64,000 nucleotides of DNA, taken from assembly GCF_041248615.1 (NCBI RefSeq), contig NZ_CP158426.1; one strand, written 5' to 3'. Both the position numbers and the translations under genes were made by a program. The stretch comes from Escherichia coli. GTDB taxonomy: Bacteria; Pseudomonadota; Gammaproteobacteria; Enterobacterales; Enterobacteriaceae. Each line of letters begins with the position of its first letter. Positions within the stretch are counted from its first letter, which is position 1. This document shows positions 3,240-8,519 of this stretch, one piece after another. The notes beneath the pieces were generated by a model. It made no database searches, was not told where the DNA came from, and saw only the letters and a list, made by a program, of their open reading frames with translations.

Positions 3240-3941
3240 ATGTTTGGCCATCTGTTACGATACTTTAGTTTCTGTAAAAAAGATTTATTAGTATTTCATC
3301 CTGAATCTGATTACTCAGATAATTTACATAAAGCCTTCTCTTTTACAAAAAGGCTAGGATTTAATGAAGAATGGAATGGGGTCACAAAAAACAAAGAATA
3401 TGATTATCAGGATGTATTCAGTCATGTCTGTCTGCAGTCTGGTGTGACAGACTTTTCCGCTTCAGCAGGACAATGCTTAAAGTGGAGTCATTATTTTCAG
3501 CCATATTTTGAGAATATCCTTGAATGTCGGGTATGGGTTACCGTTGGACAACTCTGGAAACAGGAACGATTTATTTACAATCCGTCAGTTGCGGATTTTC
3601 AGCGCTGGTCTGAAAAAGGGATTCAGCCTGAAGATTTTAGACATCACTCGGGGTTTAACTTTCATGCGTGGTTGACGACGGAAAATGGTGTGATTGTGGA
3701 TGTTTCCTTTATGAGTACGTTATCGCGGCGATTACCTGAACACCTGAGTGAAGTCAGTGGAAGTGTGATTATTGGCACGCCAGAGACGGTTCTTCCTGAG
3801 TATAAATATGTTCCCATGATTGTCGGTCAGAGGATTGTTGAGAAAATAGAAAAACGCTCTTTCATTGGTTTTCTGGCGCACGACGATATTGATTTATATA
3901 CAGTACCTGCAATCTTGGTTCCGGTATGGAAAGAATGTTAA
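3240..3941 (+). CDS. hypothetical protein (233 aa), AT-rich orphan cargo gene
   Basis: ORF 3225..3941 starts at TTG; in-frame ATG at 3240 sits 6 nt after GGGGAGA. Sampled stretches are clearly AT-rich versus neighbouring core genes. No family recognised. Confidence 0.55.
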   Translation: MFGHLLRYFSFCKKDLLVFHPESDYSDNLHKAFSFTKRLGFNEEWNGVTKNKEYDYQDVFSHVCLQSGVTDFSASAGQCLKWSHYFQPYFENILECRVWVTVGQLWKQERFIYNPSVADFQRWSEKGIQPEDFRHHSGFNFHAWLTTENGVIVDVSFMSTLSRRLPEHLSEVSGSVIIGTPETVLPEYKYVPMIVGQRIVEKIEKRSFIGFLAHDDIDLYTVPAILVPVWKEC

Positions 3942-4260
3942 AGCACGGAATAACACTATGCACTTACCGCTTTCCGGAACTCAGCTTGTTACCTGAGCGG
4001 TCAACAGAGCAGTCTTTCAGTGTCTGCACTTGGTTGCCACTAAACCGGAGTCATTTATCAGAAGTATATGTTCATGGAAGGATATTGTCAGCGCCAGTGA
4101 TATAAGACGGTAATGAGGATAGCCACCCCGCATGGGTTTCCTCAACACTGGTCACTGTGACAAGCGCACCATGATCGTCTTTGTATCGCTGATTGACTTT
4201 CGATAATAGAACATCTTCTGACATAAATTTTAGTACGGTAACAATTAACTAAATTTTCAT

Positions 4261-4527: not shown

Positions 4528-4671
4528 CAGATAGTACCGGAACCTCACGCCCCGCTCTGGCAGCAGATCAGTCAGGTGGAACATCGACCACTGAGTGCCT
4601 ATGAGGAGCTGTTGTGATGCATGTGTCAACGACGGATGAAAGTGGCTCTTCCGCAACCTGGGTGGAGATTT

Positions 4672-6098
4672 TCATGCCAGTGGACTCATTACCCTCTGCC
4701 TGAGTAGTTCAAATCCTGCTCGACCATACATCTGGCGTTTCAGCATCTTCAGGCGATTTACATGACCTTCGACAACACCATTACTCCAGTGACTACTGAT
4801 TGCCTCACATATAGCTGCAGCATCAGCTTCCATCCCCGCCGCCACGCGCCGAAATTCTGCTGAACCGCTTTCGTGGACTCGAGTGAACCAACTGCTTAGC
4901 TGTGATTTATTTTGGGTTTTCAGAATACGGTAGAACTCGAGTGCCAGTTGCTGCGCTATTTTCAGCTCAGGTTCTTTTTCACACATCAGACTAATAAATC
5001 GGGAAGCATAATTTTCTTCATCCCTGGTTATTCTCCAGGGCATCAACCAGCGGCTTACCCGGGACACTGAAGGAAGTCTGACGGCAGTAGTAACCGGTGG
5101 GTTCCAGCCTTTACGCCATTTGGCAACCGCATCCCTGACGATGGTTTCACTGCCTGTAAATCCCCGGGCCACCATTTCCCGCCATATCCGGCTGGCGTTA
5201 TAATTACCACTTTCTCGTTGCTCTTTTAACCACTCCCTCCATGGGTCCAGAAGCCCTCGCTTTGGCGGTCGGGTTGACATTTCAGGGAATGTTCCTGAAC
5301 GCACCCAGCGACTGACTGTCACACGCGACAGGCCTGTAATACGGGATATTTCCCTGAAACTACATCCCTTGTTATGCAGGGCCATAACCTCTGTCCAACG
5401 CTGATGCCGTTTTTTGCGGGTTTGTTGTTTTAGGCGTTCCGGACGACGGAGCGATGCTGCAGGCACAGATGGTTCTGGATCAGGTGATTTCTTTGGTGAC
5501 AACTCACTGGCAACAAGACGTATCAGAGGTATATGTCTATACATCATTCGTTCAGGCGCATCGCCAATATTTTTTAGCAGATGCCATCGATCGGCCACCT
5601 GTCTGGCCTGAGGTGCACCTTCACGTGCTGCTGTCGCATAGACTCCACTGCGATCACGCGAGACAATCTGTATTTCCGGATATTTTCTGAACCAGGTCGC
5701 CAGCGTACGCTGATCACGGCCGGGAAGCAGGACGAGGGGACGGTGAGTATCAAGATTGACGATTAACGTACCGTAACGGTGGCCCCGATGCCACGCCCAC
5801 TCATCAATACCGACATGAGGCGAGCCTGACTGTTTCGTCTCCGGGGTATTGATAACCCTGCGAAGGAGAGTATCAGCACTGCAACGGAGACCCACTGCCG
5901 TTGCTGCCCGTTTCCCGGCCTCACCTCCGGCGATTAATCCCAGTTGACGTTGTAAATTTTGTAACGCCTGTGAAGACTGTTGGTGTGAACCGGCGAAGGG
6001 AGCAAGCGACTCGGCAAAAATTTTACGTGAACAAGCCGGGTTACGGCAGTACCAGTGGCGGACAGAAAATACAAGCCATAGCGTATGTCCTGAGCAGG
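4672..6098 (-). pseudogene. ISL3-family transposase, C-terminal ~475 aa, interrupted by IS2
   Basis: C-terminus carries ISL3 signature (SNGVVEGHVNRLKMLKRQMYGRAGFELLRQRV); N-proximal zinc-finger-like RHWYCRNPACSRKIF; ORF runs 12 codons into IS2 end at 6099. Confidence 0.8.
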
Positions 6099-6109
6099 TG
6101 GATTTGCCC

Positions 6110-7015
6110 CTATATTTCCAGACACCTGTTATCACTTAACCCATTACTGGCCTGCTGCCGCAGATATTCCCGTGGCGAGCGATAACCCAGTGCACTATGC
6201 GGATGCCATTCGTTATAATGCTCGAACGCCTCTGCAAGGTTCTTTGCTGCCGTTAACCCGTCTGGTTTAGGCATGATACTGATGTAGTCACGCTTTATCG
6301 TTTTCACGAAGCTCTCTGCTATGCCGTTACTCTCCGGACTCCGCACCGCCGTGTTCTTCGGTTCAAGCCCCAATATCCGGGCAAACTGCCGTGTTTCATT
6401 AGCCCGGTAGCATGAACCATTATCCGTCAGCCACTCTACTGGAGACGCCGGAAGCTCGTTGCCGAAGCGGCGTTCCACCGCTCCCAGCATGACGTCCTGT
6501 ACTGTTTCACTGTCGAAGCCGCCCGTAGTGACTGCCCAGTGCAGTGCCTCACGGTCACAGCAGTCCAGCGCGAACGTGACTCGCAGTTTTTCTCCGTTAT
6601 CACAGCGGAACTCGAACCCGTCAGAGCACCATCGTTGATTGCTTTCTTTCACGGCCACTTTGCCAGTATGTGCCCGTTTCGATGGCGGTACAGCGGTTTT
6701 TCGCTCAAGCAACAGCGCATTCTGGCGCATGATCCGGTAAACACGTTTGGCATTGATCGCAGGCGTACCATCAAGTTCGGCCTGTCTGCGAAGCAGCGCC
6801 CATACCCGACGATAACCATACGTGGGCAGCTCTCCGATAACATGGTGTATACGGAGAAGCACATCCGTATCATCTGAGTGACGGCTGCGGCGACCATCTT
6901 TCCAGTCATCGGTTCGTCTGAGAATTACGTGCAACTGCGCACGCGACACCCGGAGACAACGGCTGACTAAGCTTACTCCCCATCCCCGGGCAATAAGGGC
7001 GCGTGCGCTATCCAC
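6110..7015 (-). CDS. insD: IS2 transposase InsD (orfB)
   Basis: 301-aa [19 protein letters not shown]... matches remembered IS2 InsD. Confidence 0.9.
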
Positions 7016-7338
7016 TTTTTTGCACGCCCGTATTCAACGGCTTCTTTAAGGAGTTCATTTTCCATCGTTTTTTTGCCGAGCAGGCGCTGGAGTTCTTTAA
7101 TCTGCTTCATGGCAGCAGCAAGTTCAGAGGCAGGAACGACCTGCTCTCCTGCGGCCACAGCAGTAAGACTTCCCTCCTGGTATTGCTTGCGCCAGAGAAA
7201 TAACTGGCTGGCTGCCACACCGTGTTGCCGGGCAACAAGGGAGACCTTCATTCCCGGTTCAAAACTCTGCTGAACAATAGCGATCTTTTCCTGTGTAGTA
7301 CGCCGTCTGCGTTTCTCCGGTCCTAAGACATCAATCAT
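6973..7338 (-). CDS. insC: IS2 InsC (orfA)
   Basis: ORF 6973..7383 contains [22 protein letters not shown]...; start placed at that Met (121 aa); overlaps insD as expected for frameshift fusion. Confidence 0.85.
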
Positions 7339-7429
7339 CTGCTCTCCAATGACTAGTCTAAAAACTAGTATTAAGACTATCACTTATTTAAGTGATATTG
7401 GTTGTCTGGAGATTCATGGGGCCAGTCTA

Positions 7430-7569
7430 CCTGTGTAGTACGCCGTCTGCGTTTCTCCGGTCCTAAGACATCAATCATCTGCTCTCCAATGACTAGTCTA
7501 AAAACTAGTATTAAGACTATCACTTATTTAAGTGATATTGGTTGTCTGGAGATTCATGGGGCCAGTCTA
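7430..7569. repeat. perfect tandem duplicate of the terminal 140 bp of IS2 (IRL end plus insC 5' end)
   Basis: 7430..7569 is base-for-base identical to 7290..7429. Confidence 0.85.
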
Positions 7570-7782
7570 ATGTGTATCCGGGATGGATGTTTACCAGAAC
7601 CTTCTCTGTTCCAGTGTGTGGAGTTTTACAGAAGAGGCGACTGTATGCAACTCTTGCCCCGTAACTGTCTTTATTCGTTTCTCCACACTCTCCGGACATT
7701 GTAAATTCCAGATGTGTGGCAGTGTGTTTTTCGTAAATCGTACACAATGCATTTTTACACGGAGTTCAGCCAGTCGTATCAC
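7570..7782 (-). pseudogene. probable N-terminal remnant of the ISL3-family transposase, beyond the IS2 insertion
   Basis: Short frameshifted minus-strand ORFs (7520..7747, 7591..7782) adjacent to the IS2 junction; assignment by position and weak similarity only. Confidence 0.35.
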
Positions 7783-8036
7783 TGAGAGTTTTTTTTCTGA
7801 TTTGTACCACTCATGCAGCAGTGATAAGGAGATATTTTCTCTGTCGGGCCAGCAGGGGCGGTGCCACCTGTTTAGTTTTCTTATGTTTGGTAAAAGAGAG
7901 GCTAAAATATATACAACAGGCGCATGTAATGATTCATATTGTTAATCATTAACCAGTAAGAATTAATGTAGTGGATCGGTAATTCAGGACACCTCGAAAT
8001 CCTGTTAATGTTAAAACAGTGAAAATGGGGTGATGC

Positions 8037-8455: not shown

Positions 8456-8519
8456 TCAGCGCCAATGATATAAGACAGTAATTAGGATTCGGACGATTTC
8501 CTGGACTGCTTTATTATGC

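Follow-up and report, generated by a model that had tools for sequence, protein, structure and literature searches.

The window analyzed here is a stretch of 64,000 nucleotides (64 kb) corresponding to positions 960001-1024000 of NZ_LT599825.1, the chromosome of E. coli NRZ14408. Its segment 4300-8300 is identical (100%) to positions 964300-968300 of that chromosome and lies within the tRNA-Phe genomic island, whose integrase gene adjoins tRNA-Phe and yqgA. In RefSeq, positions 4672-6096 are annotated as 'ISL3-like element ISEc38 family transposase, incomplete, missing N-terminus', and the gene beside this remnant as an IS3 family transposase with a programmed frameshift. We compared the locus with a set of 5,426 complete E. 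coli genomes and described the following features.

4622-4643, no strand assigned: outer arm of about 21 bp (TGTCAACGACGGATGAAAGT), found with ISEc38 copies at other loci
4644-6098, minus strand: ISEc38 remnant, the 3' 1455 bp of a 1722-bp element, collinear with the copies at loci L003, L004 and L005 up to 6098
4644-4666: transposase-distal terminal inverted repeat of ISEc38 (GGCTCTTCCGCAACCTGGGTGGA), kept in the window
4672-6098, minus strand: ISEc38 transposase pseudogene, truncated to residues 66-539 of 539
6099-7429, minus strand: complete IS2 of 1331 bp, identified by IS2 models and alignment to K-12 IS2A
6099-6139: IS2 right inverted repeat, IRR (TGGATTTGCC...)
6110-7015: IS2 orfB, open
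6973-7338: IS2 orfA, open
7015-7021: IS2 A6G frameshift site (AAAAAAG)
7388-7429: IS2 left inverted repeat, IRL (TAGACTGGCC...)
7430-7569, minus strand: exact 140-bp tandem copy of 7290-7429, that is, of IS2 positions 1-140
7570-8036, no strand assigned: island DNA, not ISL3, collinear with island DNA of relatives

From a comparison of multiple copies, the core of ISEc38 measures 1722 bp and ends in terminal repeats of 23 bp (21 of 23 positions identical). Target-site duplications of 8 bp are usual in the ISL3 family. The ISEc38 core at loci L003, L004 and L005 has no direct repeat alongside; it is flanked by inverted arms of about 21 bp, which are identical at these three loci and swapped at L006. 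In the window, the partner arm past the 5' end of the element is absent, having been deleted. The remnant comprises 1455 bp and one terminal repeat of an element that is complete with 1722 bp and two. The missing 5' 267 bp contain the second terminal repeat, the promoter region and codons 1-65. The retained part is at least 99.5% identical to intact copies, which are found in strains 746, F1022 and AR13438 and on plasmid CP019954, and ISEc38 sequence of this kind is found in 3,518 of the 5,426 genomes. At this locus ISEc38 has been a repeated target of other insertion sequences: IS2 in strain 4FM, and ISEc31 in strains 3908 and TUM14759.

The transposase frame at 4672-6098 consists of 474 sense codons and a stop codon at 4672-4674, close to the roughly 475 codons up to 6099 given in the initial annotation of this DNA. 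It matches the NCBIfam model NF033550 for ISL3-family transposases (329 bits, cutoff 180) and the Pfam domain DDE_Tnp_ISL3 (E=5e-35). Alignment to an intact family member, proposed there as a check, supports the assignment: strain 746 has an intact ISEc38 transposase of 539 aa at the same island position, and its residues 66-539 match the 474 residues of the frame throughout (100% identity). Of the Zn_ribbon_ISL3 domain (residues 40-84), the first CxxC is missing from the truncated protein. The longer open reading frame at 4672-6135 (487 aa) is a hybrid, as it takes its GTG start and its first 12 codons from the IS2 IRR, and the limit of the ISEc38 frame coincides exactly with the IRR terminus TGGATTTGCC at 6099. 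This ISEc38 copy is dead, as had been proposed: a complete transposase cannot be encoded, and two ends cannot be presented.

The adjoining IS2 is collinear with K-12 IS2A without gaps at 95.5% identity. Its IRL and IRR each differ from those of K-12 IS2A by a single base within the 41/42-bp repeat; the lengths of the IS2 terminal repeats, the structure of the ends and the direct repeats have been described (PMC3299598). Counting the stop codon, 121 of 122 orfA positions and 289 of 302 orfB positions are identical to K-12, and both products score above the cutoffs of the IS2 models for TnpA (NF006928, 273.5 bits, cutoff 229) and TnpB (NF006918, 700.8 bits, cutoff 597). Judged by its sequence, the element is an intact IS2, a variant or isoform of K-12 IS2A. 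NRZ14408 contains many IS2 copies, with 12-17 matching places in the genome. The initial annotation had assigned the entire interval 6099-7569 to IS2. An intact IS2 is indeed present there, but the 1471 bp are made up of IS2 at 6099-7429 and the 140-bp tandem copy, which had been overlooked.

The 5-bp target duplication of IS2 is absent in the window, the left flank being GCAGG and the right flank ATGTG; K-12 IS2A is flanked by ATTAC on both sides. The lack of 5-bp repeats shows that a rearrangement followed the insertion and does not exclude the element from IS2. The DNA beyond the far IS2 end had initially been taken for short frameshifted remnants of the ISL3 transposase, and the locus for an ISL3 gene split by IS2. 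Neither of the two open reading frames within 7520-7782 matched a Pfam or NCBIfam family, and comparison of 7570-8036 with the missing 5' part of ISEc38 (blastn, blastn-short and tblastn) returned only 7-10-mers at chance level. The segment 7570-8036 is found in 568 of the 5,426 genomes. It is 99.6-99.8% identical to island DNA located 1.2-25 kb from ISEc38 in IS2-free relatives, where it carries no annotation and separates the gene of a MarR-family regulator from the remnant of an IS3-family orfA (from 8037 in the window). Position 7570 corresponds to a site 333 bp upstream of the MarR-family gene in strains 746, F1022 and AR13438. The segment is non-IS island DNA, and the supposed ISL3 remnants are dropped.

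A simple nested insertion, in which IS2 entered an intact ISEc38 and a decayed N-terminal part survives at 7570-7782, would explain the exact coincidence of the ISEc38 frame's end with the IS2 terminus. It could also draw on the result of in silico excision, since removal of 6099-7569 keeps the frame open for about 66 further codons, and on a genuine case of IS2 within an ISEc38-like element only 14 bp away in strain 4FM. However, the residues added by the excision (...HLEFTMSGECGETNKDSYGARV...) are unlike the true N-terminus of ISEc38 (MGNSMHSLKTLLQLPCGWRC...). Excision as a means of gene restoration was tried with both 6099-7569 and 6099-7429 and was rejected, as the frame obtained is accidental and has no N-terminal similarity. 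The initial annotation had named two outcomes that would speak against nesting: no continuous transposase frame after removal of IS2, and a segment 7570-7782 unrelated to ISL3 transposases. The second was found; a stop-free frame does appear after removal, but by accident. Nesting is refuted by the mapping of the far flank to island DNA, the missing target duplication and the missing similarity to the ISEc38 5' end, and we assign it a negligible probability.

The copy next to ggt in strain 4FM (NZ_CM137007.1) shows what a real IS2 insertion into an ISEc38-like element looks like. There, IS2 is flanked by the target duplication GTATC/GTATC, ISEc38-like DNA lies on either side, and an ISL3 N-terminal fragment resumes directly past IRL. 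The 4FM IS2 has the same orientation as the IS2 of the window, and its site is only 14 bp further into the ISL3 element. However, 4FM possesses both the target duplication and the continued N-terminal part, whereas the window has neither. None of the marks of a nested insertion (host element on both sides, target duplication of the guest, and restoration of the host by excision) is present in the window. The window and 4FM form a clean pair of negative and positive controls for the automated detection of nested insertion sequences. An insertion sequence that abuts a truncated one is not necessarily nested in it, and 'in-silico excision' is misleading for the reconstruction of insertion history at this locus.

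More than 20 relatives have an intact, IS2-free ISEc38 at exactly this place in the island, next to the same left flank. The order of arrival proposed in the initial annotation, ISL3 first and IS2 later, is thus upheld. In the IS2-free relatives the two breakpoints could be placed base for base: window position 6098 maps to 4406 in L004, 4650 in L005 and 8164 in L008, and position 7570 maps to 29573, 5810 and 33331, respectively. The sequences that now flank IS2 are not contiguous in these relatives. Both breakpoints are present in strains 746 and F1022 at a distance of 25,166 bp and in AR13438 at a distance of 1,159 bp; all three strains have an intact ISEc38 and no IS2. Three complete genomes of independent origin (NRZ14408, TUM9803 and GF43), with Germany, Japan and chicken meat as sources, share both IS2 junctions at 100% identity. 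Among the 5,426 complete genomes there is no intermediate with a single junction, and no genome was found with IS2 and its target duplication at just one of the two sites.

We conclude, with a probability of about 0.9, that this IS2 marks an IS2-associated deletion junction and that the missing 267 bp from the 5' end of ISEc38, like the island DNA next to them, were lost and not moved elsewhere. The proposed course of events is as follows. ISEc38 was first resident in the tRNA-Phe island, and IS2 arrived later. An IS2-associated deletion would then have removed the DNA from ISEc38 position 267/268 (window 6098) to window 7570, leaving a single intact IS2 whose two flanks had never been neighbours before. 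The extra 140-bp copy of the IRL end would be a secondary event or an artefact. The pseudogene and the insertion sequence are both in the RefSeq annotation already, and the locus is an ordinary IS-associated deletion scar of a known kind; the significance of the present reading is mainly that of correct annotation.

The extent of the loss depends on the ancestor. Over the 3,499-bp left flank, F1022, which retains the 25-kb configuration, has no mismatch to the window, AR13438 has four and strain 746 has six; the right flank does not discriminate between the 25-kb and the 1.16-kb ancestors. A loss of 25,166 bp is most likely, being weakly favoured by the comparison of 0 versus 4 SNPs in one flank. 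From an ancestor already of the shortened AR13438 type, no more than 1,159 bp would have been lost. The 25,166-bp cargo includes genes for a GntR regulator, an amidohydrolase and an MFS transporter, citCDEFXG, an acnB-like gene, agaR, malX/malY-like genes, remnants of IS66 and IS100, and a MarR gene. Behind the scar, a metabolic module of 25 kb with citrate lyase, aconitase and PTS genes has probably disappeared from the tRNA-Phe island.

Read back from its end product, the deletion may have arisen either by attack of an IS2 dimer junction or by recombination between two IS2 copies. Both routes lead to the same product, and an intermediate genome was not found. Insertion sequences that transpose by the copy-out-paste-in pathway, IS2 included, form IS dimers, and the products of their IR-IR junctions include deletions that begin exactly at the IR end (PMC9333248). 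A two-step minicircle pathway has been described for IS2 (PMC3299598). By the first route, IS2 would have inserted at one site, and intramolecular attack on the other site by the reactive, transposase-made IRR-IRL junction of a tandem (IS2)2 dimer would have removed the interval along with one IS2 copy. We consider the chances of this route to be a little under even. Both deletion endpoints fall exactly at IS2 termini, which is behaviour described for IS-dimer junctions, and IS2 dimers have been reported (PMC9333248). The arrangement of the 140-bp copy, [1-140][1-1331] in IS2 orientation, is the expected residue of a dimer junction attacking its own copy, and both IRL joints adjoin TGTGTA. On the other hand, homologous recombination between two copies would give an identical end product, the 140-bp copy may be an artefact, and neither a dimer nor an intermediate was seen among the 5,426 complete genomes. 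The deletions known for IS30, IS911 and IS2 dimers (PMC9333248) are similar to that in the window in that they start at the IR terminus and keep one IS copy; they may also target inner IS sequences (PMC9333248), as in the 140-bp structure. They differ in that no dimer or junction was observed here, where the mechanism is deduced from the end product alone.

The second route, for which we see equally near-even odds, would have begun with two independent IS2 insertions of like orientation: one copy within ISEc38 with the target duplication GCAGG, the other upstream of the MarR-family gene with the target duplication ATGTG. RecA-dependent recombination between the two copies would have followed. 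This route accounts for a single intact IS2 with unlike flanks and agrees with the many IS2 copies of the genome and with the repeated IS hits on ISEc38 at this locus. Against it, neither of the two single insertions is found in the 5,426 complete genomes.

The 140-bp copy contains IRL, the promoter region and the first 16 codons of orfA, and its joint with the complete element is located exactly at the IRL terminus. The bases beside the duplicated unit differ on the two sides, so the boundaries of the unit are unambiguous. The copy is absent from the two other genomes that have the same junctions. Among the E. coli genomes, the 80-bp joint is full-length in LT599825 only; the '163 records at 80% or more' returned for it are an artefact of two 40-bp pieces joined by the search tool. 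The joint had no match in metagenome contigs, and an exact look-up of the joint-spanning 47-aa open reading frame in the ORF index found none.

The assembly itself could be at fault, either because the ISEc38-IS2-flank join was mis-assembled through the repeated IS2 or because the 140-bp copy alone stems from a contig overlap left untrimmed during finishing; as an account of the locus, this explanation is very improbable. In its favour, the copy occurs in LT599825 alone, with no trace in metagenome contigs or ORF records, and an insertion sequence pasted in up to its terminus and joined to a contig beginning 140 bp within the element would produce exactly the observed structure. However, three independent complete assemblies contain both main joints at 100% identity, and since the joints co-occur in all three and neither is found alone, mis-assembly of the main junction is unlikely. 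As to the 140-bp copy, no similar duplication exists elsewhere in the 64-kb window, and transposase chemistry likewise predicts that the joint falls exactly at the IRL terminus. For the copy itself, a by-product of transposition and a finishing artefact are about equally likely.

If the copy is a by-product of transposition, a dimer junction, or an IS2 minicircle with subsequent recombination, may have targeted the resident IS2 140 bp from its IRL; IS30 has been reported to target 'inner sequences of IS copies' (PMC9333248). It can be speculated, although we regard it as rather doubtful, that the structure formed by positions 1-140 and the complete IS2 is real and is a natural trace of the attack by an (IS2)2 dimer junction or minicircle on its own IS2 copy, 140 bp from IRL, that the same pathway made the 25-kb deletion, and that both IRL joints were chosen beside TGTGTA. 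If true, the locus would be one of the rare cases in which the IS-dimer decay pathway, characterized mainly on plasmids to date, has left its record in a genome. Replication slippage between TGTGTA microhomologies was also considered for the copy and rejected, because it predicts a period of 139 bp and an 'A' at the joint, where 140 bp and 'CC' are observed. The TGTGTA motif adjoins the two IRL joints as IRL|CCTGTGTAG and IRL|ATGTGTATC.

A 9-mer, TGTATCCGG, occurs both in the right flank (7573-7581) and in the deleted ISEc38 DNA that lay directly beyond the left breakpoint. A microhomology deletion through this 9-mer from a 4FM-like insertion was rejected, as the left joint lies 14 bp from that of 4FM and IRL is separated from the motif by four additional bases (ATGT). 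The number of shared 9-mers in the whole sequence comparison is about what chance predicts; the position of this one, a post hoc observation, is suggestive of an IS2 target preference. The deleted ISEc38 segment with TGTATCCGG is the place where the IS2 of strain 4FM made its GTATC duplication.

Embedded in the ISL3 DDE domain of the ISEc38 transposase is an IS21/IstA-like N-terminal HTH module. A Pfam search returned two separate DDE_Tnp_ISL3 stretches in this protein. The insert is matched by positions 2-104 of the NCBIfam IS21 model (E=1.6e-16), by IstA of IS100 (BLASTP, E=2e-11) and by the structures PDB 8B4H/8Q4D (IS5376 IstA residues 10-107; about E=1e-10). The 370-position ISL3 model is stretched over residues 31-535 of the ISEc38 transposase; therefore, in contrast to the latter, typical ISL3 transposases lack the insert of roughly 165 aa. 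The module and the arms that flank ISEc38 are located as follows.

Features of ISEc38 in the window and in the loci compared
Window, about 5100-5400, minus strand: IS21/IstA-like HTH module, residues 301-398 of the intact protein L004:2983-4599:- (L004, an IS2-free relative with intact ISEc38)
Window, 4622-4643: ISEc38 arm
L003 (comparison locus with an ISEc38 copy), 1506-1526 and 3249-3270: ISEc38 arms
L006 (ggt-adjacent ISEc38 copy), 2096-2116 and 5174-5194: ISEc38 arms

In the copies compared, an arm of about 21 bp invariably flanks the 1722-bp ISEc38 core on each side; the two arms are mutually inverted repeats (TGTCAACGACGGATGAAAGT ... ACTATTGCACCGTTCGTGACA), and no direct target repeat is visible around the core. 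The order of the arms in L006 is swapped relative to the transposase orientation, and in L004 and another comparison locus, L005, one arm is set off from the core by an additional 24 bp. The 1722-bp definition may not match the real ends of ISEc38, or its preferred palindromic target.

In strains 3908 (NZ_CM128561.1) and TUM14759 (NZ_CP128877.1), another IS3-family element, ISEc31, interrupts the ISEc38 that occupies this position of the island; the ISEc38 match there is in two pieces over about 2.8 kb. Together with the IS2 insertion in strain 4FM and the window, these interruptions amount to at least three strikes of IS3-family elements on ISEc38. The sequence TGTGTA adjoins both IS2 IRL joints (window 7430-7434 and 7570-7581), and the 9-mer TGTATCCGG is common to the right flank (7573-7581) and the deleted ISEc38 segment (L004 4415-4423), its site in ISEc38 being the place of the GTATC target duplication made by the 4FM IS2. 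This coincidence may reflect an IS2 target preference, or else chance.

The island with its IS2 scar is also present in TUM9803 (L002, NZ_CP135671.1; 11313-11390), where it borders on no more of tRNA-Phe than a 3'-terminal stretch of about 50 nt, an att-type repeat that is followed by a ParA-encoding element. The fragment is labeled tRNA-Ser by PGAP, and ARAGORN found no tRNA in it. In this strain the island and a second integrative element appear to form a tandem.

Two direct repeats of 33 nt, 91% identical to each other and about 4.4 kb apart (window 4088-4120 and 8456-8488), enclose the whole block of Mu remnant, ISEc38, IS2 and IS3 orfA remnant; they may be the ends of older, decayed IS copies.
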